A stretch of DNA of 64,000 nt from an uncultured Acidobacteriota bacterium (GCA_963752235.1 CAVVXL010000001.1:1856590-1920589); one strand, 5' to 3'; positions 2,982-37,886 are shown, numbered from the stretch's first letter. Numbers and translations are program-made. The notes: generated from the letters alone by a model not told the origin.

Positions 2982-4149
2982 GCAGGCCGGACGAGGCCAG
3001 GAAGCGGGCGAGCGCCTCGGCGGTCACCTCGTAGCCCACGGGGTTGCAGTGCGGGTCCCGGGGCAGGAGGTGGAAGGGTCCCCGCGCCGCGTTGGCCCGG
3101 AAGGTCTCGATCAGCGGGCAGTAGGGGACGCCCGTCGCCGCGGCCGTCCGCTCCAGGCGCCGCTCGAGGGCGAAGCGGTCGTAGCGCCCCGGCGGCAGAC
3201 GGAGCTTCTTCTCGGTGTCCCGGATATAGGGATCCCAGACCTCCGCGATCGCGGGATGGGAGTAGAAGAAGAAGCGCGCCCCCCCCTGCCGGGCGCTGGC
3301 GTCCATGGCCCTCAGCAGGGCGGTGAACAGCTTCCAGTCGATCGCCTCCAGCCGCTCGGGAACGTAATAGAGGTCGGGCGCGATCCCCAGCAGGTTGCGC
3401 CCCTGCCAGCCGCCGAGGCGAGCCCGCAGCACCAGGAGCCGCGGCTGCAAGAGGCGGTAGAGGGCGGAGCCCTGCAGCCACTGCCGGGGACCGCTTCCGG
3501 AGCTTCCCGTCGGGGACGGCATCGCTCCGGGGGGCGAAACGTAGGTCAGCGCACCGTCCGCCGCGAGCACGAAGCGCGGCTTCGGCAGGCCGTAGGCCTC
3601 CCGCGACTCGTTGCCGCCGAAATCATTGTCGCAGAGGGCATAGGCGACGATGTCCGGATTGTAGAGGGGGATCAGGCGGCGCATCAGGAGGAGCTCCTGA
3701 TCGGTCGAATATCCCTCGACCCCCGCGTTCAGCACCTCGACCCGCTTCCCAGCTCTCCGTAGCAGGCGCTCGAGATCGGCGTGGACCGTGCGGTCCGGCG
3801 GCACGCCGCGGCCGACGACCGTCGAGTCCCCGAACAGCAGGATGCGGACGACCCCGGGCGGCTTGGGCCGGCGCGCGTCGGCGGGGGTCAGGCCGTCCGG
3901 GTTCGTCCGGTAGCGGACGGTCCAACCCTGCTCGGTCCGCGTCGTGACGTCGAGGTCCGGCCGCTGCACCCAGGCGATCTCGGGGTCGGGGTGCCAGTCG
4001 TCGCTGGCATCCCGCTGCCGCCAGAGGTGCGCGGGAACCAGCAGCCGGACCGCCGCCTCGAGCAGCCCGAGGGTCAGCAGGCAGGAGATCAGGACGACCG
4101 CGCTCGCCGTAACGGCGCGGCGCAGGCGGGAGCCCGATCGTGTCTTCAT
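2926..4149 (-). CDS. SGNH/GDSL-family hydrolase with N-terminal membrane anchor
   Basis: N-terminal signal-anchor (AVVLISCLLTLGLLEAAV). ILLFGDSTVVG is a block-I GDS(L) motif. About 400 aa, typical of AlgX/DltD-like SGNH acyl-esterases found in glycan loci. Confidence 0.6.
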   Translation of the reverse strand: MKTRSGSRLRRAVTASAVVLISCLLTLGLLEAAVRLLVPAHLWRQRDASDDWHPDPEIAWVQRPDLDVTTRTEQGWTVRYRTNPDGLTPADARRPKPPGVVRILLFGDSTVVGRGVPPDRTVHADLERLLRRAGKRVEVLNAGVEGYSTDQELLLMRRLIPLYNPDIVAYALCDNDFGGNESREAYGLPKPRFVLAADGALTYVSPPGAMPSPTGSSGSGPRQWLQGSALYRLLQPRLLVLRARLGGWQGRNLLGIAPDLYYVPERLEAIDWKLFTALLRAMDASARQGGARFFFYSHPAIAEVWDPYIRDTEKKLRLPPGRYDRFALERRLERTAAATGVPYCPLIETFRANAARGPFHLLPRDPHCNPVGYEVTAEALARFLASSGLLRSAPLGTAAAPRRAPSA

Positions 4150-4178
4150 ACCTGGAATGCTCTCCCGCTCAATGCAAA

Positions 4179-4198
4179 GGCGGCCCTATAGGGCCGCC
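4179..4198 (-). terminator. putative intrinsic terminator hairpin downstream of the OMP gene
   Basis: Perfect palindrome GGCGGCCC-TATA-GGGCCGCC, followed on the minus strand by TTTGCATT. The U-tract is weak. Confidence 0.35.
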
Positions 4199-4226
4199 CG
4201 AGGAAACCCTTCCCGATCCGGAACGA

Positions 4227-4841
4227 CTAGAAGCGGCCGCGCAGCCCGAGATACACCTTGCTCTGGATGCGGTCTTCCGACCCCTGGACGAGGTCGAAGC
4301 GACCGACGCCGAAGGCGCTCAGCTTGCGAGTGAGGTAGATGTCGACCCCGAACTGCGCGTTGGCGCCGAACTTCGACTGGGTGCCGGACACGCCGACGCC
4401 CGGGTTGCTGGTGAGCAGCGTGGCGTCGATCGAGTGCACCCCGGCTCCCACGCCGAGGAAGGTGTCGACCCCGCCGAGCGGGATGACGCCGACCAGGTTG
4501 ATGCCGAGGAGCAGGTCGCTCCCCTTCCCCGTGTGGCCGCTGCTCGGCTTCCAGTAGCCGACCTCCGGCTCGATGTAGCCGAAGATCCCGTCCTCGCTCG
4601 CCGACCGCCGGTCGTCGTCGCTTCGGCCATGGACGCGGATACGGAGCGAGGCCATCTCGTAGGTCTCCACCTTGCTCAGGGGCTCGACGAGGCCGATTCC
4701 CACCCCCAGGGCGAAGCGGTCGCCGTGCCGGTCACTCCGGTCGTCGTCGCGGTCGCGGTCGTTGGAGCTCTGGGCCTGAGCCCGGCCGGCGGAGACCAGG
4801 GTCGCCGCCGCCAGCAGGCCGACTATCATCCAGCGTTTCAT
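4227..4841 (-). CDS. outer-membrane beta-barrel protein (OmpA/OmpW-like small porin family)
   Basis: Signal peptide MKRWMIVGLLAAATLVSAGRAQA. Alternating amphipathic strands. C-terminal ...LGLRGRF ends with the aromatic residue typical of OMP beta-signals. Confidence 0.6.
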   Translation of the reverse strand: MKRWMIVGLLAAATLVSAGRAQAQSSNDRDRDDDRSDRHGDRFALGVGIGLVEPLSKVETYEMASLRIRVHGRSDDDRRSASEDGIFGYIEPEVGYWKPSSGHTGKGSDLLLGINLVGVIPLGGVDTFLGVGAGVHSIDATLLTSNPGVGVSGTQSKFGANAQFGVDIYLTRKLSAFGVGRFDLVQGSEDRIQSKVYLGLRGRF

Positions 4842-4896
4842 CTCATTCCTCTCCTTCCCAGAACGTGCAATGGAGTCAACTAGCTGTCACGCAACT

Positions 4897-5910
4897 TTAC
4901 CACGAGCCGAGGAGGGCTTCGGCGACCTCCGGCAGGCGCGCGAAACCGGAAGGATAGCTGAGGCGGCGCACCGGCACCTGGCGCACCAGCCGGCTCAGGC
5001 GGTCAAGGCGCGAAGGCTGCAGGCCGGCCGCCTCGACGAGGCGCGGCGAGAACGAGTGGCGGACCAGCTCGATCAGCGCCTCGCCCCGGGAAACCGGCTG
5101 GATCTCGACGCCGCCCTCCGCCTCCGGCCGGCGGGAGGCCAGATAGATACAGGCGAGCGGGACGGGCGCATCCTGAAACGAGCCGAAGCCGCCGGTGCCG
5201 ACGGCGACGCTCCGCTTTTCCGAATCCTGCTGAACGAGTGGGAGGTCGACAAAATGCCCCAGGAAGTATTCGGTCTCGTCGGGCCACATCCGCATGTGAG
5301 GATAGGAAGGACAGGCCTGCCAGCGCTCTCCCACTTCCTCTACGACGAGCAGGTCGTCGGTCAGCAGCGATGCGCCGGTCCGCATCATGGCCGCGGCGAG
5401 ACCCGTCTTACCACCGCCGTGACGGGAGACGAAGGCCCATGCATGGCCGTTTAAATCCACCGCCGAGGCATGGAGGGTGGGCAGGCCGCGACGTTCGAAC
5501 CAGTAGGAAAAAACGGGGCCGAGGAGCCGTAGCTCTGCCAGACCGCTCTCCGGATCAGGGACGTAGCCTTCAATCTGATGGGGGTGGAGGTGAAAATCGC
5601 CAGCGCCCGGAAAATGGAGGACCTCTCCTTCGGGATTACGATAAAGGCTCCCCAGGCTCGCGCCGGTTCGGTCCTGGAATGCGCTGATATAGACAGGAGG
5701 GGAAGGGAATGGCTTCAGTGGCCTGCCGGATGAAAAGATGAAGGAGAACTCGGAGGGACCGCACCCTGACGGTAATACAAGGCGAAAGGGGAAGTCGCTG
5801 GAGATCGTCAATCCGAAAAGGCGAAGACGACGACATACCAGCGCTACCGCTCCAGGAAGATCTGATCCGTCCTCTTCAAACGCCCGTACTGCCGCCATTA
5901 AAATCGGCAT
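4897..5910 (-). CDS. HPr-kinase/phosphorylase-like kinase (lasso-peptide-associated HprK-related kinase)
   Basis: P-loop region HASAVDLNGHAWAFVSRHGGGKTGLAAAM resembles the HprK C-terminal Walker-A segment. Directly downstream of the precursor gene on the same strand. The start is uncertain: the track ORF begins with GTG at 5934, and in-frame ATGs lie at 5910 and 5898. Confidence 0.6.
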   Translation of the reverse strand: MPILMAAVRAFEEDGSDLPGAVALVCRRLRLFGLTISSDFPFRLVLPSGCGPSEFSFIFSSGRPLKPFPSPPVYISAFQDRTGASLGSLYRNPEGEVLHFPGAGDFHLHPHQIEGYVPDPESGLAELRLLGPVFSYWFERRGLPTLHASAVDLNGHAWAFVSRHGGGKTGLAAAMMRTGASLLTDDLLVVEEVGERWQACPSYPHMRMWPDETEYFLGHFVDLPLVQQDSEKRSVAVGTGGFGSFQDAPVPLACIYLASRRPEAEGGVEIQPVSRGEALIELVRHSFSPRLVEAAGLQPSRLDRLSRLVRQVPVRRLSYPSGFARLPEVAEALLGSW

Positions 5911-6061
5911 CCGTGAGGTCGGACAAGAGACCACCGGTCAAGTCTATGATTGATCCCCATTCCTGTAATCGAGGGCTTTCGTAGCGTTTCCGTAGAGGAG
6001 CATGCTCAACTGGAGAAGGGCTCGAGCGCGCCGCCGGAATCATCTCAGTATCCTTGTCCAT
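5876..6061 (-). CDS. lasso peptide precursor (A). Predicted 43-aa leader plus 18-aa core GLLSDLTDADFNGGSTGV
   Basis: 61-aa ORF between the cyclase and the kinase. The leader ...RYESPRLQEWGSIIDLTG matches YxxPxLx3Gx5Tx exactly, with Thr at -2. The core starts with Gly1 and has Asp8 (8-residue macrolactam). GGAAAGG RBS upstream. Local GC is lower than the surroundings. Confidence 0.65.
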   Translation of the reverse strand: MDKDTEMIPAARSSPSPVEHAPLRKRYESPRLQEWGSIIDLTGGLLSDLTDADFNGGSTGV

Positions 6062-6106
6062 CGCAAAGTACCTTTCCTGGAGAGTCTGAGACCTAGCGCT
6101 CCCTAC

Positions 6107-8008
6107 TCATGCTGCCGACCAACTAACTAGGGCTTCCCGCCGCCGGTTGCGGATCGCTTCGTAGCGTCTCAACCAGATCTCAAGTGTAATGGCGTACCAC
6201 AAGGAACGCCTCGACTCGTCGGTTCCACCAACAAGAAAGGCTCCATAAGCAGCTTGAAAGCGCTCTCCGTCCAAAACTCCAAGTTCGGCCGCGAGAGGAG
6301 CTCGCACGAGCTCTCTAATTTCGCCGGATGCCCGCTCCCGGACTCTCGAATCCAGGAACGCAGTGAAACGGGTCTTACCCACCCGAAGCCGGATTCTATC
6401 CGGAAGGATTCCCGTCATGGATCGCCGCAAGAGATTCTTAGACGAACCGAGCCGGAAGAGCTGCTCCCCCGGTATCGCCAGAACATACTCCAAGAGTCGC
6501 CGGTCCAGAAAGGGGTGCCGCACCTCAATGCCGAAGGATGCGGCGCTACGGTCATACCAATTCGCGAGCCGCCAGTACCAGGGTACGCCCACCAAGTTCG
6601 CGTAGATCTGCTGCCGTGCCGGATTTTCGAACATCCGCGGGACCTGGAGGGCCTCCTTAGAGCCTAAGAGGCCGGTCCGGCTAGCGAAGTCGGGTTGGAG
6701 CAGTGAACGCAGGGGCGCCCCTTGCCTTGGATTTAGCGTCGATCGCAGCAAGCGGTCGGCGGCAGCCGGCAGGTGAGGTCGGCCGAAGTGGCGATAGAAG
6801 ACCCGGAGAAGTGACTCATTCCGGCTCTTCGCGTGTCTCGCCACCTCAAGGACCGCGCGAAGGTCGCCTCTCCGCAGCCGTTCCGCATAGACAAGAGAGC
6901 TGCCGCCGAGCAGATCGTCCCCTCCGTGTCCCATCAGCAGCACGAAGGAACCCTGCTTCACCATCCGGCAAAAAATCTCCTGGTGGCAGGTGCGCCAGCC
7001 GATAAAAGGTGTATCAGGGCTGAGGGGAAGGGAGCGCTGTGACTCGAGGCTCCAGAGGCTCTCGGCCTTGATGGGCTCGACCTCCAGGCCGAGCTCCTCC
7101 GTCATCGCCCGGCTGTAGCTCCGCTCATCGCACTCCGTCAGGCGATCGAAGACGAACGTGTAGGCGCGGACCCTGGCGCCGGAAGATCGCTGCGCGAGCG
7201 CCGCCACCGCGGTCGAGTCGAGCCCGCCGCTCATCGCGACCGCCACGAAGCTTCCCGCACCACGGAGACGGTCGGTCACGGAGCGCTGAAAGAGGTCGCG
7301 GAAGTGAGCCGCATAATCCTCATCCCGCGAGTAGCGAACCTCGGCCGGGCGCGGATACCAGTACCGCTCCACCCGTATGCCCTCTGGATTGGCAGTCAAC
7401 CGCTGGCCTGGCCCCAGTTTGTGAACAGCCGCGAAAAAGCTCCGTTCCGGATCCTCGCATTGGCTGGTCAAGTAGGCGGCGATCTCGCGTTCGTTGTAGC
7501 CGTCGGGGACCGACGGATGGGCGAGGACCTGCACGGCGTCCGAGGCGAAGCAGACGAGGGAGCCGACGCGGGCATAGTGCAGTGGCTTGATGCCAAGAGG
7601 ATCGACGGCGCAGAAAAGGAGCCGACGGGCGGCGTCCCACACGGCGAGAGCGAAGTCACCGAGGAGGTGGTCCGTGCAAGCTTCTCCCCATTCTAGATAG
7701 GCCGCCAGGAGCAAAGCGGCATCCGAAGCGTCGGCGCCTCCCCGAGGCGCGAGCCGGGCGATCAGGTCAGGGCGATTGTCGAGGCGGCCGTCGAACAGGG
7801 CGCAGACCTGCCGTTGGGGATCGAGGAGAGGCTGTTCCAGGCCGCCTTCTTCTGGGTGGAGAGCGAGGAACGCCAGTCCTGCTTCGCCGAGAAACCGGTA
7901 ACCGATCCCGCCGGGAGCCCGATACGCTGCCGACTCCGCCATCCGACGAAAGGCCTCGGGCTCGATCCGGAGAGCCGCGAAGTCGACGATGCCGAAGACG
8001 CCGCTCAT
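6107..8008 (-). CDS. lasso peptide cyclase (C), an asparagine-synthetase-B homolog
   Basis: The AsnB C-terminal adenylation domain is present: SGGLDSTAVAAL is the PP-loop SGGxDS. The N-terminus MSGVFGI has Ser in place of the Ntn Cys, typical of an inactive glutaminase domain in lasso cyclases. The start ATG overlaps the PqqD stop (ATGA). Confidence 0.7.
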   Translation of the reverse strand: MSGVFGIVDFAALRIEPEAFRRMAESAAYRAPGGIGYRFLGEAGLAFLALHPEEGGLEQPLLDPQRQVCALFDGRLDNRPDLIARLAPRGGADASDAALLLAAYLEWGEACTDHLLGDFALAVWDAARRLLFCAVDPLGIKPLHYARVGSLVCFASDAVQVLAHPSVPDGYNEREIAAYLTSQCEDPERSFFAAVHKLGPGQRLTANPEGIRVERYWYPRPAEVRYSRDEDYAAHFRDLFQRSVTDRLRGAGSFVAVAMSGGLDSTAVAALAQRSSGARVRAYTFVFDRLTECDERSYSRAMTEELGLEVEPIKAESLWSLESQRSLPLSPDTPFIGWRTCHQEIFCRMVKQGSFVLLMGHGGDDLLGGSSLVYAERLRRGDLRAVLEVARHAKSRNESLLRVFYRHFGRPHLPAAADRLLRSTLNPRQGAPLRSLLQPDFASRTGLLGSKEALQVPRMFENPARQQIYANLVGVPWYWRLANWYDRSAASFGIEVRHPFLDRRLLEYVLAIPGEQLFRLGSSKNLLRRSMTGILPDRIRLRVGKTRFTAFLDSRVRERASGEIRELVRAPLAAELGVLDGERFQAAYGAFLVGGTDESRRSLWYAITLEIWLRRYEAIRNRRREALVSWSAA

Positions 8009-8292
8009 CCTGTGACTGCAGGTACTTGAAGCAGACCACGAGCGGCCAGCGCGCCGATGAGCTGGGCGAGATCTTCGCGCAGCCGCGCCTCGGGCACGTC
8101 GTACTCCGCGCAGAGGGCGTGGCAGACCGCTTCGGCATCGCCGTGGAGTTGAAGTAAAGACCACATCCGGGTTCCCACCTCGTCGAGTCCGTAGTACCGG
8201 CCGGTTACGGTTTCGAGGAGGACCGCCTCGCCGTCGAGATCCCGGAACAGCACGGATTCCGAGACGGTGATGCGAGGCGCAGAGTCAGTCAT
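8005..8292 (-). CDS. PqqD-family RiPP recognition element protein (lasso B1)
   Basis: 95 aa. ...FRDLDGEAVLLETVTGRYYGLDEVGTRMWSLL... has the PqqD/RRE fold signature. Translationally coupled to the cyclase. Confidence 0.75.
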   Translation of the reverse strand: MTDSAPRITVSESVLFRDLDGEAVLLETVTGRYYGLDEVGTRMWSLLQLHGDAEAVCHALCAEYDVPEARLREDLAQLIGALAARGLLQVPAVTG

Positions 8293-8337
8293 GATTTATA
8301 CAAGAACCGTTCCAGTATACCAGGGGGGTAGTCTTAC

Positions 8338-8375
8338 GCAAAAAAACAGGGAGGGCCGGGTGACCGGCCCTCCCT
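8338..8375 (-). terminator. rho-independent terminator of the giant repeat-protein gene
   Basis: On the minus strand: 12-bp perfect stem AGGGAGGGCCGG / CCGGCCCTCCCT with a 4-nt loop, then TTTTTTT. It lies 23 nt after the stop at 8398 and precedes the lasso B1 gene. Confidence 0.75.
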
Positions 8376-8397
8376 AAAGAGTCTCCTGCGAAGAGGC

Positions 8398-11300
8398 TTA
8401 GCTCCCGCAGTGATACCCGAAATCAACATCAGTCCGACTGGCCGTGAGGCTGAACGTGGCCTGGTTGGCGGTCGAAAGGCCATCGAGGTCGAACGTCTCG
8501 GTCCAATGAGCCGGCAGGGTGCTGGTGACGATTTTCACCGTGTAGGTGCCGGCCGCCAGGTTGCCGAAGCTATAGCTGCCGCTGCTGTTGGTCGTGGTGG
8601 TGGCGATGACCGTGCCGCTGCTGTTGAGCAGTTGGACGGTCACTCCGCTGATGCCCGCCTCGCCGGAGTCGAGGTGGCCGTTGCTGTTGGTGTCGTTCCA
8701 GACCTTGTCGCCGATCGTGAGGCTGCCGCGGTAGCCGAAGTCGACGTCGGTGCGGCTCTGGCCGGCCGTGAGGGCGAAGGTGGCCTTGCCGGCCGTGGAG
8801 ACGCCGTCGAGGTCGTACGTCGCGGTCACACCGGCGGGCAGGGTGCTGGTGACGATCTTCACCGAGTAGGTGCCGGCCGTCAGGCCCCCAAAGCTGTAGT
8901 TGCCGTCGGTCGCGGTGACAGCCGAGGCGATGGCGAGACCGGTGCTGTCGAGGAGCTGGACGGTGACGCCGTTGATGCCGGTCTCACCGGAGTCCTGGAC
9001 GCCGTTGCCGTTGGTGTCGGTCCACACCCGGTTACCCACGGAGCCGAGGGTGCCGCAGTCGTCCAGGTCGATGTTGATGTCGCCCTGGCCGGTGGTCTGG
9101 AAGCTGGAGCCGGTGGTCGGCTGATGCGTCACCGTCCACAGGTACCAGCCGGAGCCGCCGAAGTTGAGGTTCTTGCCGTTGGCGCCGAAGCCGACCTGGA
9201 ACGCCGGTCCGGTGTTGTGAATGGTGACCACCGCACCCGCGTAGCTGCCGGTGCCGGTCAGCGTGCCGGTGTAGCTCGTGAAGTAATACCAGCTGGCCGT
9301 GTTGATCGGGCCGCCGTTCTCGCTGTAGGCCGTGGACTTCAGCTCCTTCTTCGGGCTACCGGAGCCGATGGCGGTGGTCAAGCCGCTGAAGGTGACGTCC
9401 ACCGTGAAGCTCCTGGTGGGGTCGGAGACGCTCCGCAGCGTGCCCGTCAGGTGGGCGGTGTAGTCGGAGTTGACCACGAAGCTGCCCGGGTTCGGCGTGA
9501 ACACCAGGTCGGTGACGATGCCGGGGAACCAGAAGGCCTGGCCGCCGGAGGAGGGACCGTAGGTGGCGTCGAGGGCGGCGGCGAGGGCGCAGCCGTTGAC
9601 CTTGTAGCCAAAGTCCACGTCGGTGCGGGTCTGGCCGCCGGTGAGGGTGAAAGCGGCGACGTTGGCGGTCGCGATGCCGTCGAGGTCGTAGCTCGGGCTG
9701 AGCGCGCCGCCCAGCGGCAGGGTGCTCGTCACCACGCGGACGGAGTAGCTGCCGGCCACGAGGTTGGAGAAGTTGTAGAGGCCGCCACCCGAGGTGGTGG
9801 TGGTGGCAACGACGGTGCCGCCCGAGTTGAGGAGCTGGACGGTGACGCCGTCGAGGCCGGACTCGCCGGAGTCGAGGACGCCGTTGCCGTTCAAGTCGAA
9901 CCAGACCAGGTCACCGACCGAAGCGCTGGTGCGGTAACCGAAGTCGACGTCGGTGCGGCTGGCCCCGGCGGCGAGGGTGACGGTGGCCGCGTTGGCCGTC
10001 GCCAGACCGTCGAGGTCGTAGGTCTGCGCCGCCCCGCCGGGGATGGTGGAGGCGACCACCTTCACCGTGTAGGTGCCGGCCACCAGGTTGCTGAACGTGT
10101 AGTTGCCGTCGCCGCTCGTGGTGGCGGTCGCGATGACAGTGCCGCCGCTGTTGACCAGCTGGACGGTGACGCCGTTGATCCCGGCCTCGCCGGAATCCTG
10201 GACGCCGTTGCCGTTGGTGTCGAGCCAGACCCGGTCACCGATCGAGCCGGCGTTCTTGTAGCCGAAGTCGACGTCGGTGCGGTCCTGGGCCGCGGCGAGG
10301 GTGAAGGTGGCCTTGTTGGCCGTGGCGACGCCGTCGAGGTCGAAGCTCGGCGTCACACCGGCGGGCAGGGCGGTGGTGATGACCTTCACCGAGTAGGTGC
10401 CGGCGGGAATCCCGTCGAAGGTGTAGCTGCCGTCCCCCGCGGTGATCGCGGAGGCGAAGGCGACGCCGTTGTTGTCGAGGATCTGCACGGTGACGCCGTT
10501 GATGCCGGCCTCGCCGGAATCCTGGACGCCGTTGCCGTTGGTGTCGAGCCAGACCCGGTCACCGACCGAGCCGAGGGTCGAGCAGTCGTCCAGGTCGATG
10601 TTGATGTCGCCCTGGCCGGTCGTCGTGAAGCTCGAGCCGGAGGTGGGCTGGTGCGTCACCGTCCAGAGGAACCAGCCGGAGCCGCCGAAGCGGACGTTCT
10701 TGCCGTTGGCGCCGATGCCGGTCTGGAAGGCCGGGCCGGTGCGGGCGATGGTGATCACCGCCCCCGCATAGCTGCCGGTGCCGGTCAGAGTGCCGGTGTA
10801 TGTCGTGTAGTACGACCAGGTGGCGGTGTTGACCGGGCCGCCGTTTTCGGAGTAGGCCGAGGCCTGCAGCTCCTTCTTCGGGCTGCCGCTCCCCACGGTG
10901 TTGGTCAGGCCGCTGAAGGCGACGTCCACCGTGAAGCTCTTGGTGGGGTCGGAGACGCTGCGCAGCGTGCCGGTCAGGTGGGCGGTGCCGTCACCGTTGG
11001 CGACGAAGCCTCCCGGGTTGGGCGTGAAGACGAGGTCAGTGACGATGCCCGGGAACCAGAAGGCCTGGCCACCCGAGGAGGGGCCGTAGACGGTATCGAG
11101 CGGGGCGCCGACGGCGCAGCCGTTCGTCTTGTAGCCGAAGTCGACGTCGGTCCGGTTCTGGCCAGCGGCCAGAGTGAAGCTGGCGAAGTTGGCCGTGGCG
11201 ATCCCGTCGAGATCGAAGCTCGGAACCACACCGGCCGGCAGGCTGCTGGTCACCACGCGGACGGAGTAGGAGCCGGCCGCGAGGTTGCCGAAGGTGTAGT

Positions 11301-14300
11301 TGCCGTCGCCGCTGGTGGTGGTCGTCGCGACCACGTTGTTGGCGGAGTCGAGGAGCTGGACGGTGACGCCGTTGATGCCGGTCTCACCCGCGTCCTGGAC
11401 GCCGTTGCCGTTGCTGTCCATCCAGACACGGTCGCCGACCGAGCCGGTGAGGCGGTAACCGAAGTCGACGTCGGTGCGGTTCTGACCCGCGGTCAGGGTG
11501 ACCGCCGCCTGGTTCGCCGTCGCGGTCCCGTCGAGGTCGTAGGTCGCCGCGACCCCAGCGGGGAGCGAGGCGGGGACGATCTTGACGGTGTAGCTGCCGG
11601 CCGCCAGGTTGCTGAACGTGTAGTTGCCGTCGCCGGCCGTCGTGGTGGTCGCGATGACGGTACCGCCGCTGTTCACCAACTGGACGGTGACGCCGTTGAT
11701 CCCGGCCTCGCCGGAATCCTGGACGCCGTTGCCATTGGTGTCCGTCCAGACGCGGTCGCCGATCGAGCCGGTGTTCTTGTAGCCGAAGTCGACGTCGGTG
11801 CGGCTGGCACCGGCGGCGAGGGTGAGGGTGGCCTGGTTGGCCGTCGCCACGCCGTCGAGGTCGAAGGTCTCCGCCGTGCCGGCCGGCAGACCCGAGACCT
11901 TGACCGTGTAGGTACCGGCCGCCAGGTTGCTGAACGTGTAGTTGCCGTCACCGGCCGTCGTGGTCGTCGCCACCACGTTGTTCGAGGCGTCGAGCAGCTG
12001 GACGGTGACGCCGTTGATGCCCGTCTCGCCGGAATCCTGGACGCCGTTGCCGTTGCTGTCGAGCCAGACCCGGTCGCCGACCGAGCCGGTGTTCTTGTAA
12101 CCGAAGTCGACGTCGGTCCGGTTCTGGCCCGCCGTCAGGGTGAAGGTCGCCTGGTTGGCCGTCGCCACGCCGTCGAGGTCGAAGGTCTCCGCCGTACCGG
12201 CCGGCAGACCCGAGACCTTGACCGTGTAGGTACCGGCCGCCAGGTTGCTGAACGTGTAGTTGCCGTCACCGGCCGTCGTGATCGTCGCCACCACGTTGTT
12301 CGAGGCGTCGACGAGCTGAACGGTGACGCCGTTGATGCCGGTCTCGCCGGAATCCTGCACGCCGTTGCCGTTGGCGTCGAGCCAGACCCGGTCGCCGACC
12401 GAGCCGGTGTTCTTGTAGCCGAAGTCGACGTCGGTCCGGTTCTGGCCCGCCGTCAGGGTGAAGGTCGCCTGGTTGGCCGTCGCCACGCCGTCGAGGTCGA
12501 AGGTCTCCGCCGTACCGGCCGGCAGACCCGAGACCTTGACCGTGTAGCTGCCGGCGGCCAGGTTGCTGAACGTGTAGTTGCCATCGCCGGCCGTCGTCGT
12601 GGTCGCCACCACGTTGTTCGAGCTGTCGAGCAGCTGGACGGTGACGCCGTTGATGCCGGTTTCGCCGGAATCCTGAGCGCCGTTGCCGTTGGCATCGAGC
12701 CAGACGCGGTCGCCGATCGAACCCGTGTTCTTGTAGCCGAAGTCGACGTCGGTCCGGTTCTGGCCCGCCGTCAAGGTGACCGCCGCCTGGTTCGCCGTCG
12801 CAATCCCGTCGAGGTCGAAGGTAGGCGCCGTACCGGCCGGCAGACCCGAGACCTTGACCGTGTAGCTACCGGCCGCCAGGTTGCTGAACGTGTAGTTGCC
12901 GTCGCCGGCCGTCGTGGTAGTCGCGATCACGGTGCCGCCGCTGTTCACCAGCTGGACGGTGACCCCGTTGATCCCGTTCTCGCCGGAATCCTGAGCGCCG
13001 TTGGCGTTGGTGTCGAGCCAGACACGGTCACCGATCGAGCCCGTGTTCTTGTAACCGAAGTCGACGTCGGTCCGGTTCTGACCCGCCGTCAGGGTGAAGG
13101 TCGCCTGGTTGGCCGTCGCGATCCCGTCGAGGTCGAAGGTCGGCGCCGTACCGGCCGGCAGACCCGAGACCTTGACGGTGTAGCTGCCAGCCGCCAGGTT
13201 GCTGAACGTGTAGTTGCCGTCGCCCGCCGTCGTCGTGGTCGCCACCACGTTGTTCGAGCTGTCGAGCAGTTGGACGGTGACGCCGTTGATGCCGGTCTCG
13301 CCGGAATCCTGAGCGCCGTTGCCGTTGGCATCGAGCCAGACGCGGTCGCCGATCGAACCCGTGTTCTTGTAGCCGAAGTCGACGTCGGTCCGGTTCTGGC
13401 CCGCCGTCAAGGTGACCGCCGCCTGGTTCCCCGTCGCGATCCCGTCGAGGTCGTAGGTCGCCGTCACGCCAGCCGGGAGCGAGGCGGCAACAATCTTGAC
13501 GGTGTAGCTGCCGGCCGCCAGGTTGCCGAACGTGTAGTTGCCGTCGCCAGCGGTCGTCGTCGTCGCGAGGACGGTGCCGCCGCTGTTCACCAGCTGGACG
13601 GTGACGCCGTTGATGCCGGTCTCGCCGACGTCCTGAGCGCCGTTGCCGTTGCTGTCGAGCCAGACCCGGTCGCCGACCGAGCCGGTGTTCTTGTAGCCAA
13701 AGTCGACGTCGGTCCGGTTGGCACCGGCGGCGAGGGTGAAGGTCGCTTGGTTGGCCGTCGCGATCCCGTCGAGGTCGTAGGTCGCCGCGGTCCCAGCGGG
13801 GAGCGAGGCGGCAACGATCTTGACGGTGTAGGTGCCGGCCGCCAGGTTATTGAATGTGTAGTTGCCGTCGCCACCAGTCGTGGTGGTCGCCACCACGTTG
13901 TTCGCGGCGTCGAGCAGCTGGACGGTGACGCCGTTGATGCCGGTCTCACCGGAATCCTGGATGCCGTTGCCGTTGGCGTCGAGCCAGACGCGGTCGCCGA
14001 CCGAGCCCGTGTTCTTGTAGCCGAAGTCGACGTCGGTGCGGCTGGCGCCGGCGGCGAGGGTGAAGGTCGCCTGGTTGGCCGTTGCGATCCCGTCGAGGTC
14101 GTAGGTCGCCGCGACTCCAGCCGGGAGCGAGGTCGCCACGATCTTGACCGTGTAGCTGCCGGCCGCCAGGTTGTTGAACGTGTAGTTGCCGTCACCCGCG
14201 GTCGTCGTGGTCGCTACCAAGTTGTTCGAGGCGTCGAGCAGTTGGACGGTGACGCCGTTGATGCCGGTCTCGCCGGCGTCCTGCACGCCGTTGCCGTTGC

Positions 14301-17300
14301 TGTCGAGCCAGACCCGGTCGCCGACCGAGCCGGTGTTCTTGTAGCCGAAGTCGACGTCGGTCCGGTTCTGACCGGCGGTGAGGGTGAAGGTCGCCTGGTT
14401 GGCCGTCGCGATCCCGTCGAGGTCGAAGGTCGCCGCGGTCCCAGCGGGGAGCGAAGCGGGGACGATCTTGACGGTGTAGCTGCCGGCCGCCAGGTTGCCG
14501 AACGTGTAGTTGCCGTCGCCGGCGGTCGTCGTCGTCGCGACCACGGTGCCGCCGCTGTTCACCAGTTGGACGGTGACGCCGTTGATGCCGGTCTCGCCGG
14601 CGTCCTGAGCGCCGTTGCCGTTGGCGTCGAGCCAGACCCGGTCGCCGACCGAGCCGGTGTTCTTGTAGCCGAAGTCGACGTCGGTCCGGTTGGCGCCGGC
14701 GGCGAGCGTGAAGGTCGCCTGGTTGGCCGTCGCGATCCCGTCGAGGTCGTAGGTCGCCGCGGTCCCAGCGGGGAGCGAGGCGGCAACGATCTTGACGGTG
14801 TAGGTGCCGGCCGCCAGGTTGTTGAATGTGTAGTTGCCGTCGCCACCGGTCGTGGTGGTCGCCACCACGTTGTTCGCGGCATCGAGCAGCTGGACGGTGA
14901 CGCCGTTGATGCCGGTCTCGCCGGAATCCTGGATGCCGTTGCCGTTGGCGTCGAGCCAGACGCGGTCGCCGACCGAGCCCGTGTTCTTGTAGCCGAAGTC
15001 GACGTCGGTGCGGCTGGCGCCGGCGGCGAGCGTGAAGGTCGCCTGGTTGGCCGTTGCGATCCCGTCGAGGTCGTAGGTCGCCGCAGTCCCAGCCGGGAGC
15101 GAGGCGGCAACGATCTTGACCGTGTAGCTGCCGGCGGCCAGGTTGCTGAACGTGTAGTTGCCGTCGCCCGCGGTCGTCGTGGTCGCCACCAGGTTGTTCG
15201 AGGCGTCGAGCAGCTGGACGGTGACGCCGTTGATGCCGGTCTCGCCGGAATCCTGGACACCGTTGCCATTCGCGTCGAGCCAGACCCGGTCGCCGACCGA
15301 GCCCGTGTTCTTGTAGCCGAAGTCGACGTCGGTGCGGCTGGCGCCGGCGGCGAGCGTGAAGCTGGCCGTGTTGGCGGTGGCGACGCCGTCGAGGTCGTAG
15401 GTCGGCGTCACCCCCGGCGGGAGCGAGGCGGCCACGATCTTGACGGTGTAGCTGCCGGCCACCAAGTTGTCGAACGTGTAGTTGCCGTCGCCGCTCGTGG
15501 TGGTGGTGGCCACCACGGTGTTCGCGGCATCGAGCAGTTGGACGGTGACGCCGTTGATGCCGGCCTCACCGGCGTCCTGGGTGCCGTTGCCGTTGCTGTC
15601 GAGCCAGACGCGGTCGCCGACCGAGCCCTTGTTCTTGTAGCCGAAGTCGACGTCGGTGCGGGTGGCGCCGGCGGCGAGGGTGAAGCTGGCGGCGTTCGCC
15701 GTGGCGATGCCGTCGAGGTCGTAGGTCGGGGTCATGCCGGCCGGCAGGGTGCTGGGCACCACGCGGACGGTGTAGTTGCCGGCGGTGGCCGGGAAGGCGT
15801 AGTTGCCGTCGCCGCTGGTGATCGTCGCCGCGACGACGTTGCCGCCGGCGTCGACGAGCTGGACGGTGACGCCGTTGATGCCGGCCTCGCCGGAATCCTG
15901 AACGCCGTTGCCGTTGGCATCGAGCCAGATGCGGTCACCGACCGAGCCGACCGTCGAGCAGCCGTCGAGGTCGACGTTGATGTCGCCCTGGCCGGTCGAC
16001 TGCAGGTTGGCGCCGGCGGTGGGCTGGCTGGTGACGTTCCACACGTACCAGCCGGAGCCGCCGAAGTTGCCGTTCTTGCCGTTGGCGCCGGCACCCACCT
16101 GGAAGGCCGGGCCGGTCTGGTCGATCCGGATCACCGCCCCCGCGTAGTTGCCGATCCCCGTCAGGGTGCCGGTGTACGAGGTGTAGTAGTACCAGGTCGC
16201 CGGATCGATCGAGCCGCCGTTGGCCACGTAGGCCGAGGCGAAGAGCTCTTCCTTCGGGCTGCCGGCCGGCGGCGTCGACTGATAGCCGCTGAACTGCACG
16301 TCGACCGTGAAGGCGTTGTTCGGATCCGACTTGCTGCGCACGGTCCCGGTCAGGTGAGCGGTGCCGTCGGTGTTCGAGGTGAAGCCACCGGCCGTCGGGA
16401 CGAAGACGAAGTCCGTGCCGATGCCGGGCAGGTAGAACGAGTGGCCGTTCGGACCGTTGTTGAGAGCCGGGTCCGAGATGGACGGCATGGCGCAGGAGCT
16501 GCCACCCGGAGGGGGCGTCCAGTAGCCGAAGTCGACGTCGGTGCGGTTGGCGCCGGCGGCAAGGGCGAAGGAAGCCGTGTTGGCCGTGCCGAGGCCGTCG
16601 AGGTCGTAGGTCTCGGCCAAGCCGGCCGGAAGCGTGGCGGTGACCACCCGGACGCTGTAGGAGCCGCCCGCGAGGTTGCCGAAGAGGTAGTTGCCGTCGC
16701 CGGCCGTGACTGTCGAGGCGATCACGTTCGAGCCGCTGTCGAGCAGCTGAACGGTCACCCCGTTGATGCCGGCCTCGCTGGAGTCCTGGACGCCGTTGCC
16801 GTTGCTGTCGAGCCAGACGCGGTCGCCGACCGAGCCGTTGGCGCGGTAGCCGAAGTCGACGTCGGTGCGGTTGGTGCCGGCGGCGAGAGTGAACGTGGCC
16901 TGGTTGGCCGAGGCGACGCCGTCGAGGTCGTAGGTCTCGGCGACTCCGGCCGGTAGCGAAGAGACGCGGACGGTGTAGGTGCCGGCCGCCAGGTTGTTGA
17001 ACGTGTAGTTGCCGTCACCCGCCGTGGTGGTGGTCGCCACGACGTTGTTCGAGCCATCGAGGAGCTGGACGGTGACGCCGTTGATGCCGGCCTCACCCGC
17101 GTCCTGGACGCCGTTGCCGTTGCCGTCGAACCAGACGCGGTCGCCGACCGAGCCGGTGTTCTTGTAGCCGAAGTCGACGTCGGTGCGGGTGGCACCGGCG
17201 GCGAGGGTGAAGGTCGCCTGGTTGGCGCTCGCGACGCCGTCGAGGTCGTAGGTCTCGGCGACCCCGGCCGGCAGCGAAGAGACGCGGACGGTGTAGGTGC

Positions 17301-20300
17301 CGGCCGCCAGGTTGTTGAACGTGTAGTTGCCGTCGCCCGCGGTCACCGTGGTGCCCACCACGTTGTTGGCGCCGTCGAGCAGTTGGACGGTGACGCCGTT
17401 GAGGCCGGCCTCGCCCGCATCCTGCGCGCCGTTGCCGTTGCCGTCGAGCCAGACGCGGTCGCCGACCGAGCCGGTGTTCCGGTAGCCGAAGTCGACGTCG
17501 GTGCGGGTGGCACCGGCGGCGAGGGTGAAGGTCGCCTGGTTGGCGCTCGCGATGCCGTCGAGGTCGTAGGTCTCCGCGACCCCGGCCGGCAGCGACGAGA
17601 CGCGCACCGTGTAGGTGCCCCCCGCCAGGTTGTTGAACGTGTAGTTGCCGTCGCCCGCGGTCACCGTAGTGCCGACCACGTTGTTGGCGCCGTCGAGCAG
17701 CTGGACGGTGACGCCGTTGATGCCGGCCTCGCCCGCATCCTGCGCGCCGTTGCCGTTGCCGTCGAGCCAGACGCGGTCGCCGACCGAGCCGGTATTCCGG
17801 TAGCCGAAGTCGACGTCGGTGCGGTTGGCGCCGGCGGCGAGGGTGAAGGTCGCCTGGTTGGCCGTCGCGATGCCGTCGAGGTCGTAGGTCTCCGCGACCC
17901 CGGCCGGCAGCGACGAGACGCGCACCGTGTAGGTGCCCCCCGCCAGGTTGTTGAACGTGTAGTTGCCGTCGCCGGACGTGGCCGTGGTAGCCACGACGTT
18001 GGCGCTGGCGTCGAGGAGCTGAACGGTGACGCCGTTGAGGCCGGCCTCACCCGCGTCCTGGACACCGTTGCCGTTGCTGTCGAGCCAGACGCGATCACCG
18101 ACCGAGCCGGTGGCCCGGTACCCGAAGTCGACATCGGTCCGATGGTCACCGGCGGCGATCGTCAGGGTGGCGGTATTGGCCGTGGCGATCCCGTCGAGGT
18201 CGTAGGTCGGCGCGACTCCCGGGGGGAGCGAGCCGGCGACGACGCGGACCGTGTAGGTGCCGCTGTTGAGGTTGTCGAAGGTGTAGTTGCCGTCACCGCT
18301 GGTGGTCGCGGTGGCGACGACGTTGCTCGCGCCGTCGAGGAGCTGGACGGTGACGCCGTTGATGCCGGCCTCACCCGCGTCCTGGACGCCGTTGCCGTTG
18401 CTGTCGGTCCACACGCGGTCGCCGATCGAGCCGGTGCCGCGATAGCCGAAGTCGACGTCGGTGCGGTGGGCACCGGTCGCCAGGCTGAACGAGGCGCTGT
18501 TGGCCGAGGCGACACCGTCGAGGTCGTAGGTCTCCGCAACTCCCGCGGGGAGCGTGGCGGCGTCGACCTGGACGGTGTAGTTGCCGGCGATCAGAGTGTC
18601 GAAGGTGTAGTTGCCGTCACCGCTGGTCGTGGTGGTCGCGACCAGGACGCCGTACGCGTCGAGCAGCTTGATGGTCACGCCGTTGATGCCGGTCTCGCCG
18701 GCGTCCTGGACGCCGTTGCCGTTGGTGTCGAGCCAGACCCGGTCACCGACCGAGGCCGTGGCCGGCGGGCAGTCGCCGAGGTCGATGTTGATGTCGCCCT
18801 GACCGGTCGGCAGCAGGTTGGCACCGACGGTGGGCTGGCTGGTGACGTTCCAGATGAACCAGCCCGAGGCGCCAAAATGAGTGTTCTTGCCGTTGGCGCC
18901 GGCTCCCACCTCGAAGGCCGGACCCGTCTGCGTCATGTCGATGATGGCGCCGGCGTAGTTGCCGATCCCCGTCAGGGTGCCGGTGAAACCGGTGTAGTAG
19001 AACCAGGTCGAGGGATCGACCGGACCGCCGTTCTCGACGTACGCGGGGGGGAGGAGCTCCTTCTTCGGGCTCCCCGCCGGCGGGCTCGCCGAGTAGCCGG
19101 TGAAGTGCACCACCACGGTGAACGCGTTGTTCGGGTTCGAGGCGCTGCGCAGAAGGCCCGTGAGCTGAGCGGTGCCGTCGGCGTTCGCCACGAAGCTGCC
19201 GGGGATCGGCGTGAAGATGAAGTCGGTGCCGATGCCGGGCAGATAGAAGGAATGGCCGGACGGGAACTGGTTGTAGGCCGGGTCGCCGGCCGCGCCGGTC
19301 GCGCAATCCGTGAAGACCGGCGGCGGCGTGCGGTAGCCGAAGTCGACGTCGGTGCGGTTGGCGCCGGGGGCGAGACTGACGGTGGCCTGGTTGGCCGTGG
19401 CGACGCCGTCGACGTCATAGGTCTCCGCGACTCCGGCCGGAAGCGTCGAGGTGACGATGCGGACCGTGTAGGTGCCGCCGGCGAGGCCGGTGAAGGTGTA
19501 GTTGCCGTCGCCCGCCGTGGTGGCCGTGGCGATGACGTTCGAGCCGGCGTCGAGGAGCTGCACGGTGACGCCGTTGATCCCGGCCTCGCCGGCATCCTGG
19601 ACGCCGTCGCCGTTGCCGTCGAGCCAGACCCGGTCACCGATCGAGCCGTTGAGGCGGTAGCCGAAGTCGACGTCGGTGCGGTTGGCGCCGGCGGCGAGAG
19701 TGAAGGTCGCCTGGTTGGCCGTCGCGACGCCGTCGAGGTCGTAGGTCTCCGCCACTCCAGGCGGAAGCGTGGCGGCGACGACACGGACGGTATAGGTGCC
19801 ACCGGCCAGGTTGTTGAACGTGTAGTTGCCGTCGCCCGCCGTGGTCGTCGTACCCACCACGTTGTTCGAAGCGTCGAGCAGCTGGACGGTGACGCCGTTG
19901 ATCCCGGCCTCACCCGCGTCCTGGACGCCGTTGCCGTTCGAATCGAGCCAGACGCGGTCGCCGACCGAGCCGTTGTAGCGATAGCCGAAGTCGACGTCGG
20001 TGCGGTTGGCGCCGGCGGCGAGAGTGAAGGTCGCCTGGTTGGCCGTCGCGACGCCGTCGAGGTCGTAGGTCTCGGTGACCCCCGCCGGCAGCGACGAGAC
20101 ACGCACCGTGTAGGTGCCCCCCGCCAGGTTGTTGAACGTGTAGTTGCCATCGCCCGACGTGGTCGTCGTGCCCACCACGTTGTTCGAAGCGTCGAGCAAC
20201 TGGACGGTGACGCCGTTGATCCCGGCCTCACCGGCGTCCTGGACGCCGTTGCCGTTGCTGTCGAGCCAGACCCGGTCGCCGACCGAGCCGGTGTAGCGGT

Positions 20301-23300
20301 AGCCGAAGTCGACGTCGGTGCGGTTCGCGCCGGCGGCGAGGGTGAAGGTCGCCTGGTTGGCCGTCGCGACGCCGTCGAGGTCGTAGGTCTCGGTGACCCC
20401 CGCCGGCAGCGACGAGACGCGCACCGTGTAGGTGCCGCCCGCCAGGTTGTTGAACGTGTAGTTGCCGTCGCCCGACGTGGTCGTCGTGCCCACCACGTTG
20501 TTCGAAGCGTCGAGCAACTGGACGGTGACGCCGTTGATCCCGGCCTCACCGGCGTCCTGGACGCCGTTGCCGTTGCTGTCGAGCCAGACCCGGTCGCCGA
20601 CCGAGCCGGTGTAGCGGTAGCCGAAGTCGACGTCGGTGCGATTGGCGCCGGCGGCGAGGGTGAAGGTCGCCTGGTTGGCCGTCGCGACGCCGTCGAGGTC
20701 GTAGGTCTCGGTGACCCCCGCCGGCAACGACGAGACGCGCACCGTGTAGGTGCCGCCCGCCAGGTTGTTGAACGTGTAGTTGCCGTCGCCCGACGTGGTC
20801 GTCGTGCCCACCACGTTGTTCGAAGCATCGAGCAACTGGACGGTGACGCCGTTGATCCCGGCTTCGCCGGCATTCTGGACGCCGTTGCCGTTGCTGTCGA
20901 GCCAGACCCGGTCGCCGACCGAGCCGTTGTAGCGATAGCCGAAGTCGACGTCGGTGCGGTTGGCGCCGGCGGCGAGGGTAAAGGTCGCCTGGTTGGCCGT
21001 CGCGATGCCGTCGAGGTCGTAGGTCTCCGCGACCCCGGCCGGCAGCGACGAGACGCGCACCGTGTAGGTGCCGCCCGCCAGGTTGTTGAACGTGTAGTTG
21101 CCGTCACCCGCCGTAGTGGTGGTGCCGACGATGTTGTTCGCGCCGTCGAGGAGCTGGACGGTGACGCCGTTGATCCCGGCCTCGCCCGCGTCCTGGACGC
21201 CGTTGCCGTTGCTGTCGAGCCAGACGCGGTCGCCGACCGAGCCGGTGTAGCGGTAGCCGAAGTCGACGTCGGTGCGGTTCGCGCCGGCGGCGAGGGTGAA
21301 GGTCGCCTGGTTGGCCGAGGCGACGCCGTCGAGGTCGTAGGTCTCGGTGACCCCCGCCGGCAGCGACGAGACGCGCACCGTGTAGGTGCCCCCCGCCAGG
21401 TTGTTGAACGTGTAGTTGCCATCGCCCGCCGTGGTGGTGGTGCCGACGACGTTGTTCGCGCCGTCGAGGAGCTGGACGGTCACGCCGTTGATCCCGGCCT
21501 CGCCCGCATCCTGGACGCCGTTGCCGTTGGCGTCGAGCCAGACGCGGTCGCCGACCGAGCCCGTGTAGCGATAGCCGAAGTCGACGTCGGTGCGGTTCGC
21601 GCCAGCGGCGAGGGTGAAGGTCGCCTGGTTGGCCGTCGCGATGCCGTCGAGGTCGTAGGTCTCCGCGACCCCCGCCGGCAGCGACGAGACGCGCACCGTG
21701 TAGGTGCCCCCCGCCAGGTTGTTGAACGTGTAGTTGCCGTCACCCGCCGTAGTGGTGGTCCCCACGACGTTGTTCGCGCCGTCGAGCAGTTGCACCGTCA
21801 CGCCGTTGATCCCGGCCTCGCCGGCATCCTGGATGCCGTCGCCGTTGGCGTCGAGCCAGACGCGGTCGCCGACCGAGCCCGTGTAGCGATAGCCGAAGTC
21901 GACGTCGGTGCGGTTGGCGCCGGCGGCGAGGGTGAAGGTCGCCTGGTTGGCCGAGGCGACGCCGTCGAGGTCGTAGGTCTCGGTGACCCCGGCAGACAGC
22001 GACGAGACACGCACCGTGTAGGTGCCCGGCGCCAGGTTGTTGAACGTGTAGTTGCCGTCGCCGGACGTGGTGGTGGTGCCGACGACGTTGTTCGCGCCGT
22101 CGAGCAGTTGCACCGTCACGCCGTTGATCCCGGCCTCGCCGGCATCCTGGACGCCGTCGCCGTTGCTGTCGAGCCAGACGCGGTCGCCGACCGAGCCGGT
22201 GTAGCGATAGCCGAAGTCGACGTCGGTGCGGTCCATACCAGCGGCGAGGGTGAAGGTCGCCTGGTTGGCCGAGGCGACGCCGTCGAGGTCGTAGGTCTCG
22301 GTGATCCCCGCCGGCAGCGACGAGACGCGCACCGTGTAGGTGCCGCCCGCCAGGTTGCTGAACGTGTAGTTGCCGTCGCCGGCCGTGGTGGTGGTGCCGA
22401 CAACGTTGTTCGCGCCGTCAAGCAGCTGCACCGTCACGCCGTTGATCCCGGCCTCGCCGGCGTCCTGGACGCCGTTGCCGTTGCTGTCGAGCCAGACCCG
22501 GTCGCCGACCGAGGCGGAGCCGCGATAGCCGAAGTCGACGTCGGTCCGCGTCTGGCCGCTGGTCAGGGTGACCGTGGCGGCGTTGGGAGTGCCCACGCCG
22601 TCGAGGTCGTAGGTCGGCGTCGTCACCCCGGCCGGCAGCGTCGCGGGGACGACCCGGACCGTGTAGGTATCGGCCGCGAGGCTGTTGAAGGTGTAGTTGC
22701 CGTCGCCGCTCGTGGTGGCGGTACCCACCAGGTTGTTAGACGAGTCGAACAGCTGCACCGTGACGCCGTTGATGCCGGCCTCGCCCGCGTCCTGGATGCC
22801 GTTGCCGTTGGCATCGTTCCAGACGCGGTCGCCGAGCGCAGCCGTCGCCGTCACCGGAGCGTGATAACCGAAGTCGATGTCGGTCTCAACGGTGCCGGCG
22901 GGAGCGGGGACGGTGGCCGCGTCGGGGGTGTCGATGCCGTCGAGGTCGTAGGTCTCGACCGAGCCCGCGGGGAGCGTCGTGGTGTCGACCTGGATGGTGT
23001 ACGTCCCCTCGGCCAGGTGGTCGAAGGAGTAGTGGCCATCCGCGCCGGTCACCGTGCTCTCCAGCGGGTTCCCGGAGTCGTCGTACAGGTTGACCGTGAC
23101 GCCGACGAAGCCGGGCTCATCGGGATCCTGGACGCCGTCGCTGTTGACGTCGTTCCAGACCCGGTCGCCGAGCGAGACGTTGCCCTGGTAGCCGAAGTCG
23201 TAGTCGGTGCGGATCTCGCCGCCGACGATGGTGAGCGCCGCCTGGTTGGGCGTCGCGACCCCGTCCTCGTCGAAGGTCGGCGTCAGGCCGCCCGGCAGCG

Positions 23301-25362: not shown

Positions 25363-25546
25363 GGGGCATCCACCTCTTGGGCTGGTGAAGGTTTTAGGGA
25401 TGACTACGGTACGGACCAGTCTGAGCAGCGAGCGTCAGGGAAGCGTCAGGAGCCCGTCCATCGATGGGATACAATGGGATCCAGGCATTGCATGTCAGTT
25501 CGGTATTCGGAGTCCGGTCGAGGACCTTGCGCGAGGGAGTTTCATC

Positions 25547-37884: not shown

Positions 37885-37886
37885 CG

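Follow-up and report, generated by a model that had tools for sequence, protein, structure and literature searches.

A predicted class II lasso precursor gene with a kinase-like partner and a distant leader peptidase gene in a Thermoanaerobaculia-like acidobacterium

The 64,000-nucleotide (nt) stretch of DNA analysed here, referred to throughout as the window, derives from an uncultured Acidobacteriota bacterium of soil origin (GCA_963752235.1, CAVVXL010000001.1:1856590-1920589) and carries on its minus strand a short open reading frame (ORF), gene A, at positions 5876–6061. That gene A is a genuine lasso precursor gene can be held with high confidence, and its product is very likely the precursor of a class II lasso peptide from a four-gene operon of a Thermoanaerobaculia-like member of the Acidobacteriota. 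The operon is arranged in the order B1-C-A-K (8292–4897, minus strand), where B1 is a leader recognition protein, C a lasso cyclase and K a homologue of HPr kinases. The leader peptidase B2 that would complete the pathway is encoded 26 kb away.

Gene A consists of 61 codons followed by a stop codon (5876–5878), with codons 1–43 encoding the leader (5933–6061) and the remainder the core GLLSDLTDADFNGGSTGV (5879–5932). Its minus-strand translation, MDKDTEMIPAARSSPSPVEHAPLRKRYESPRLQEWGSIIDLTG/GLLSDLTDADFNGGSTGV (leader/core), is identical to the string given in an earlier reading of this DNA, hereafter the original prediction. The strand had been left unstated there, and the interval is corrected accordingly to 5876–6061 on the minus strand, the plus-strand reading being ruled out by stops throughout. 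The leader had been described as a fit to the consensus YxxPxLx3Gx5Tx with Thr at position −2, and both statements hold in the translation, where Y27-x-x-P30-x-L32-x3-G36-x5-T42-G43 is exact and T42 occupies position −2. The recognition and cleavage motif (Y27-E-S-P-R-L-Q-E-W-G-S-I-I-D-L-T42-G43; 5933–5983, minus strand) provides the only match to the corresponding regular expression among the six translated frames of the 64-kb window, against an expectation of 0.01 matches per composition-matched shuffled window. The NCBIfam model lasso_leader_L3 (NF033521) matches the window peptide with 18.0 bits (E=0.002; cutoff 19), while no Pfam model matched the precursor at default thresholds. A putative Shine-Dalgarno-like GGAAAGG is present at 6071–6077 (minus strand) as previously read, with a spacing of 9 nt to the ATG at 6061 rather than the 8 nt reported. 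The local dip in G+C content (GC) is likewise confirmed, gene A having 54% GC against 69.6% for the window with 200-nt windows down to 0.535, as is the overlap with the next gene, of 23 nt for a K start at ATG 5898. An Rfam scan of positions 4000–9000 gave no match, and the exact 61-residue sequence is found in database records from two short Logan contigs only.

The strongest evidence for gene A comes from its relatives. Besides an identical peptide (P0001), a protein database search returned two relatives (P0002 and P0003) with identities of 74% and 72%, and a genome scan with C together with a metagenome scan with an eight-sequence precursor alignment added 24 further loci, all from soil Acidobacteriota but one, a Verrucomicrobiota metagenome-assembled genome (MAG). 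The counts given here refer to 23 distinct precursors, namely that of the window and 22 others, with the distant locus L021 left apart. In soil MAGs and metagenomes the C-A-K core is found at 22 related loci that carry a precursor, and the 22 other precursors keep reading frame, length and motif at identities of 40–75%. Thr(−2) is present in every precursor (23/23), Gly1 in 22/23 and Asp8 in 20/23, the remainder displaying Asp9 or Glu7, and the fourth-from-last residue is Ser (Thr once) in 22/23, mostly within G-G-S-x-x-x. Residues Y27, P30, L32, W35, G36, L41 and T42 are invariant among 17 aligned relatives, and lasso_leader_L3 matches 16 of the 17 aligned members at E<=0.1 (best E=4e-8). When the codons of gene A are compared with those of the 74%-identical homologue, 23 are identical, 22 differ only synonymously and 15 nonsynonymously, the changes in the motif region being nearly all synonymous. 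On this comparison, the frame of gene A is under purifying selection. Ser/Thr(−4) is kept in at least six loci out of reach of the K frame, and its codon alternates between AGY and TCC. Thus, the conservation of Ser(−4) acts at the amino-acid level, and the alternative that the C-terminal GGS is conserved merely through the K-A overlap is ruled out by the same two observations.

Several individual loci deserve description. The sole Verrucomicrobiota relative (L017, 11994–12170) has a shorter core, GGPKPPELDGAGFTS, which ends in Ser and is devoid of G-S-x-x-x. It is the only one of the 23 precursors without Ser/Thr(−4) and the only one ending in Ser, and may represent a link between the classical C-terminal-Ser and the G-S-x-x-x substrate types. 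The leader at the very distant C-A-K locus L021 also matches the motif, with a core end of G-S-T-Y-A-T. L033, on a 7-Mb contig (8567–8824 and 9592–10032), carries a second PqqD-domain gene of 146 residues directly 5' of K, and the core predicted for its precursor would have Glu as its first residue (LTQ/EKFSGFDDYPARGGTTGV), an atypical residue for that position. At L032 (9793–10001), which is syntenic with the window, the precursor ORF (...LTG/GVQAGFTDAGFNGGSGAV) is evident and remained uncalled by the Joint Genome Institute (JGI).

The core was originally predicted to start with Gly1 and to form an 8-membered Gly1-Asp8 macrolactam with a 10-residue tail. G44 is indeed the first core residue, and the core acidic residues are restricted to D5, D8 and D10; therefore D8 alone lies within ring range (positions 7–9). 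Together with the conservation of Gly1 and Asp8 across the family, this makes a Gly1-Asp8 ring probable. The mass of the dehydrated core had been put at ~1.70 kDa, a slightly low figure, since the computed monoisotopic mass is 1719.80 Da; addition of HPO3 brings the computed value to 1799.76 Da. The designation of Phe11 and Asn12 as candidate plugs finds no support in conservation, Phe11 being an indel position that is absent from the closest homologues. The core terminates in ...G-G-S-T-G-V. Short class II lasso peptides of the sungsanpin/chaxapeptin type have a core of ~15–18 residues and an 8-residue Gly1-Asp8 macrolactam, similarly to the window core. In contrast, they carry aromatic C-terminal plugs, where the window family displays Gly/Ser-rich tails and a kinase.

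B1 (8005–8292, minus strand) is a recognition element of the kind found with peptides that are ribosomally synthesized and then modified post-translationally (RiPP recognition element, RRE). It belongs to the PqqD family and comprises 95 residues that match Pfam PqqD (PF05402) over the full-length profile (3.3e-17), and its position is identical in all relatives. The B1 stop and the C start overlap as ATGA. The cyclase C (6107–8008, minus strand; 633 residues, starting MSGVFG at 8008) matches Pfam Asn_synthase (PF00733, 3.4e-49) and GATase_7, and its best NCBIfam match is NF033535 lass_lactam_cya with 353 bits, an 'exception'-type model whose cutoff is 525. C ends 45 nt 5' of gene A.

Immediately 3' of A, K (4897–5898, minus strand) encodes a 333-residue homologue of P-loop kinases of the HPr-kinase/PEPCK fold, with a start at ATG 5898 that was chosen by gene callers on two identical short contigs. 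Matches of K to HprK-related NCBIfam models are weak (HprK_rel_A 3e-6), and no Pfam model matched at default thresholds. In an alignment of 15 members, H143, G161–G163 (within GGGK(S/T), 161–165), K164, S/T165 and D181–D182 are invariant or nearly so, and the window protein retains them all (H143, G161–G163, K164, T165 and D181–D182), which match the lasso-kinase motif H...GxxGxGKS...DD reported previously (PMC10368454). The four best PDB matches of the K family profile are HPr(Ser) kinases, and the AlphaFold 2 model of K (predicted local distance difference test 88, predicted template modelling score 0.86) leads in Foldseek to the PEPCK/HPrK fold. K lies directly 3' of A in every relative, often overlapping it, and more than 350 intact homologues occur in soil data; those that have a source name are all labelled 'hypothetical protein' in public records.

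Linear precursors are the substrates of lasso kinases, which B1 can stimulate (PMC8498205, PMC10368454), and the phosphorylation sites known are the C-terminal Ser for PadeK, ThcoK and SyanK and Ser3 for BsfK (PMC8498205, PMC10368454). As the window core ends in Val, a gain of 80 Da cannot be placed on a C-terminal Ser as in paeninodin. No hydroxyl residue other than Ser15, fourth from the C-terminal end, is conserved family-wide, and Ser15 is proposed as the target of K because of this conservation and because both a C-terminal Ser and Ser3 are absent here. Phosphorylation of Ser15 by K is a tentative assignment, to which we give a little less than an even chance.

No B2 gene is present in the B1-C-A-K operon, an absence that was overlooked in the original prediction. 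A scan of the other window genes identified one Transglut_core3 protein, 26 kb from A, encoded at 34476–34898 (minus strand) between CNNM and groES (140 residues; Pfam PF13471, 1.1e-22), in which the sequence contexts of Cys80 and His114, PMRC and AHAW, are conserved. This gene is flanked on one side by a divergent CNNM/CorC gene and on the other by groES-groEL. Between it and A lie groES, groEL, other genes spanning ~7 kb and a gene of 16.6 kb, and it is thus not contiguous with A, B1 and C, contrary to what cluster-detection rules assume. Its identity to the B2 proteins of relatives (68–71% and 41–47%) parallels that of the cyclases (68–71% and 43–48%), some of its close relatives are named 'lasso peptide biosynthesis B2 protein' by NCBI, and more than 200 intact homologues occur in soil data. 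The parallel identities, together with the gene orders described next, indicate that the gene at 34476–34898 is the cognate B2 of the B1-C-A-K pathway. A contiguous B1-B2-X-C-A-K arrangement is displayed by more distant relatives, which belong to Holophagales, to other Thermoanaerobaculia and, in one case, to a Verrucomicrobiota MAG; in L015, L016 and L018 it is surrounded by groES, a giant gene and CNNM, and in three closer relatives B2 is located just past groEL-groES, 3–4 kb from K. An independent 285-kb JGI contig reads CNNM< B2> groES> groEL> ... giant> B1> C> A> K>, with a B2-B1 gap of ~24 kb and with C and K proteins 70–72% identical to those of the window. The orthologous B2, the contiguous distant relatives and the matching 285-kb contig argue that the split is a conserved rearrangement of a once contiguous cluster and not a loss.

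Two side observations concern the surroundings of B2. Upstream of groES, itself located just downstream of B2, a sigma-70-like promoter-like site (34296–34352, minus strand; 10/12 matches) and a CIRCE-like inverted repeat (34296–34322; 2 mismatches, 0 expected by chance) were noted, which makes a simple co-transcription of B2 with groESL improbable; the B2-groES linkage is nonetheless conserved across several genomes. The gene X found between B2 and C in distant relatives (L015 9519–10004, L018 9504–10004, L016 ~7700–8206) encodes a Cys-rich protein of 161–166 residues with a Pfam match to CxxCxxCC, a putative Zn/Fe-chelating domain (E=1.8e-6). X is not in the operon of the window or of the close clade, where B1 abuts C, a check that covered the operon.

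A pathway can be proposed by analogy with established lasso biochemistry (PMC8498205, PMC13352647, PMC10368454), for which we infer the following order of steps. The PqqD-type B1 would bind the leader via the YxxPxL...T(−2) motif, and the HPr-kinase-like K would phosphorylate the linear precursor, likeliest at Ser15. B2, a cysteine protease encoded 26 kb away, would then act in trans and cut after Gly43, and the Asn-synthetase-like C would adenylate the Asp8 side chain and join it to the Gly1 amine, resulting in a macrolactam of 8 residues that carries a tail of 10. If made, the predicted product would have a mass of 1719.80 Da, or of 1799.76 Da when monophosphorylated. An extension of this scheme, which we regard as speculative and rather doubtful, is that the family adds a third regiochemistry to the phospho-lasso peptides, in which K (poly)phosphorylates an internal tail Ser in G-S-x-x-x-COOH, the Gly-rich tail is locked in the 8-residue ring by phosphoserine in place of a bulky side chain, and the leader protease is stably provided in trans from beside groESL.

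A number of observations weigh against the assignment of gene A to a lasso pathway. The window peptide falls slightly below the lasso_leader_L3 cutoff (18.0 versus 19), C falls below that of NF033535 (353 versus 525), and the genes adjoining B1-C-A-K include no transporter or isopeptidase gene. B2 lies outside the operon, and we infer its use by the pathway from orthology only. The window core has neither of the sites targeted by characterised lasso kinases, a C-terminal Ser and Ser3. Phe11 is the lone bulky tail residue of the window peptide and is not conserved, 5 of the 23 precursors have tails without any bulky residue and a sixth has Gln only; such a scarcity is unusual for a tail that would hold its thread in an 8-residue ring. 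In addition, all sources are MAGs or metagenomes, and the peptide is known from sequence alone.

The paucity of bulky tail residues lends itself to an explanation in which a genuine Gly1-Asp8 macrolactam is formed and the tail is not stably threaded, resulting in a branched-cyclic peptide or an easily unthreading lasso. Steric locks are usually bulky aromatics whose replacement leads to unthreading or to no product (2026 review, PMC13352647). The tails after Asp8 include VEVGGSTGV, one of the five, and AEGGGSQPV, the sixth, and Phe11 is an indel position missing from the closest homologues. However, the RRE, cyclase and B2 are the machinery of threaded lasso peptides, and a phosphorylated Ser15 could itself serve as the plug. 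Cores of 15–19 residues with an 8-residue ring also resemble known short lasso peptides, and a product without stable threading is considered unlikely. A somewhat less improbable explanation concerns K, which may leave the peptide unmodified or modify Ser4, Thr7 or Thr16, with the C-terminal Gly-Ser serving cyclase recognition or target binding instead. The proposed site follows from conservation only, the sites known from characterised kinases are a C-terminal Ser or Ser3 (PMC8498205, PMC10368454), and Thr7 is likewise common among the precursors. In contrast, many members have Ala, Gln, Asn or Gly in place of Ser4 and Thr7, whereas Ser/Thr(−4) persists in 22/23, K retains every catalytic motif residue and always lies directly 3' of A, often overlapping it, and the lone member without Ser/Thr(−4), L017, has a C-terminal Ser. 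This explanation is rated unlikely, with phosphorylation at Ser15 being preferred.

Two further explanations would deny the precursor a function altogether. The absence of B2 from the operon, the lack of any B2 within 10 kb on either side in several relatives, and a GC at third codon positions (GC3) of B1, C, A and K far under that of flanking genes (0.71, 0.73, 0.53 and 0.72 versus 0.90–0.97) are compatible with a decaying remnant, in which the pathway was inactivated when its adjacent B2 was lost and the ORF fell out of use. Yet none of the four genes is disrupted, synonymous changes are in excess in A, an intact orthologous B2 is present within the window, the split layout is shared by genomes whose C and K are only ~70% identical, and soil data contain more than 350 intact K and more than 200 intact B2 homologues. 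A remnant is accordingly very improbable, and its specific form of a 'B2-less remnant cluster' is rejected in view of the intact orthologous B2 in the window and of the matching split elsewhere. It may also be argued that gene A is a chance noncoding open frame, as it comprises 61 codons only, has a low GC3 for the genome, lacks a Pfam match and went uncalled by JGI in the syntenic L032. Against this stand the motif expectation of 0.01 per window, the frame, length and motif kept at 40–75% identity in 22 other precursors with synonymous changes dominant in the motif, and the match of the NCBIfam leader model to the window peptide. This last alternative has a negligible probability and is effectively refuted by the conservation analysis, leaving a lasso precursor as the preferred reading of gene A.

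Read as a lasso system, the window cluster is closest in its components to the paeninodin type of Firmicutes (PadeA/PadeK, ThcoK) and to SyanA/SyanK of Sphingobium yanoikuyae. Split B1/B2 proteins, an Asn-synthetase-like cyclase, an HPr-kinase homologue in the cluster and a leader with YxxPxL and Thr(−2) are shared, as is the kinase motif H...GxGK(S/T)...DD (PMC10368454, PMC8498205), a likeness at the level of motifs. In contrast, the paeninodin and Syan precursors are phosphorylated at a C-terminal Ser, whereas the window core ends in Val and has its conserved Ser four from the end. B2 is part of their clusters and lies 26 kb away in the window, the window cluster has no adjacent ABC transporter, nucleotidyltransferase or sulfotransferase gene, and its phylum is different (Acidobacteriota, class Thermoanaerobaculia). 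An HPr-kinase-like enzyme is also encoded in the BsfA/BsfK cluster of Bradymonas sediminis (PMC10368454). BsfK phosphorylates a non-C-terminal Ser on the linear precursor and is stimulated by B1 (PMC10368454), a precedent establishing that lasso kinases are not confined to a C-terminal Ser. The substrate of BsfK is phosphorylated at Ser3, in the ring, and its leader carries Ile(−2), while the window peptide has Leu at position 3, Thr(−2) and its conserved hydroxyl residue in the tail; neither Bsf-type feature (Ser/Thr at core position 3, Ile/Val at −2) is thus present.

A biosynthetic gene cluster (BGC) of very similar layout is BGC 40.1 from an Acidobacteriia-like soil fosmid, which comprises B1 (294 bp), B2 (423 bp), a hypothetical gene (432 bp), C (1905 bp) and a further hypothetical gene (975 bp) (PMC9064862). 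This layout, on which the likeness is exclusively based, mirrors the B1-B2-X-C-(A)-K arrangement of the distant clade, and the gene sizes are close to those of the window (B1 288, B2 423, C 1902 and K 1002 bp). Compared with BGC 40.1, the window clade has lost X and displaced B2. The authors of that study were unable to single out a precursor, and the 975-bp gene was unrecognised as a kinase (PMC9064862). A literature search found no paper describing the present precursor family and nothing relevant on lasso peptides in Thermoanaerobaculia.

The operon is bordered by genes of different composition. An intrinsic-terminator-like hairpin at 8347–8376 (minus strand; 13-bp stem with 10 G-C pairs and a T7 tail), recognised by consensus match only, sets B1 off from a giant gene and may constitute the 5' boundary of the B1-C-A-K unit. 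The giant gene (8398–25026, minus strand) encodes 5542 residues with dozens of SdrD_B/CarboxypepD_reg-like repeats and interspersed larger modules, and a homologue lies directly 5' of the lasso genes in most longer related loci of both the close and the distant clades. At the start of the giant gene, and divergent from it, lies the gene for a regulator of 820 residues (25385–27847, plus strand) with Trans_reg_C, BTAD and AAA_16 domains in a SARP/AfsR-like architecture. On the 3' side the operon is followed by a small beta-barrel outer-membrane protein gene and a GDSL hydrolase gene, both with host-like codon usage. The GC3 of 0.90–0.97 quoted above is that of the outer-membrane protein gene, the giant gene, groEL and B2. 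GC3 is also depressed in B1, C, A and K of the relatives, more weakly, with A lowest every time. A recently acquired foreign islet is unsupported as the cause, since the same groES/CNNM/giant-gene neighbourhood is found across Thermoanaerobaculia and Holophagales; with synteny so conserved, recent transfer does not fit the low GC3, which is moreover lowered in the relatives too.

Two other loci of the window deserve mention. An Asn-synthase-like ORF at 53231–55771 (plus strand) is unlikely to represent a second lasso cyclase, as its GATase_7 match (3e-42) is typical of true AsnB and no motif-bearing ORF lies nearby. Its glutamine-amidotransferase and N-terminal Asn-synthase domains are strong and are accompanied by a Mur ligase domain in the middle, and the ORF may correspond to two genes fused by mechanical ORF calling or to a frameshift. 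A stand-alone LanC-like protein is encoded at 39972–41252 (plus strand; PF05147, 6.5e-39), adjoined by large ORFs at 37887–39923 and 36421–38916 (minus strand) for which no Pfam matches were obtained; this may be another peptide-modification locus.

The window peptide joins a known class of lasso peptides, with peculiarities at the level of its family; its B2 gene lies 26 kb off, and its likely phosphorylation site is unlike those of the characterised cases. With gene A, a substrate is identified for a lasso family, widespread in soil and uncharacterised, with homologues from Thermoanaerobaculia and Holophagae, and to our knowledge hardly any natural products have been characterised from either group. 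The family also exposes two blind spots of genome mining, in that the precursor is skipped by some gene callers and scores slightly below the NCBIfam cutoff, and rules requiring a contiguous B2 would discard the window cluster. If Ser15 is the target of K, the known regioselectivity of lasso kinases would be extended, and the family would offer a test of phosphate as a steric lock.

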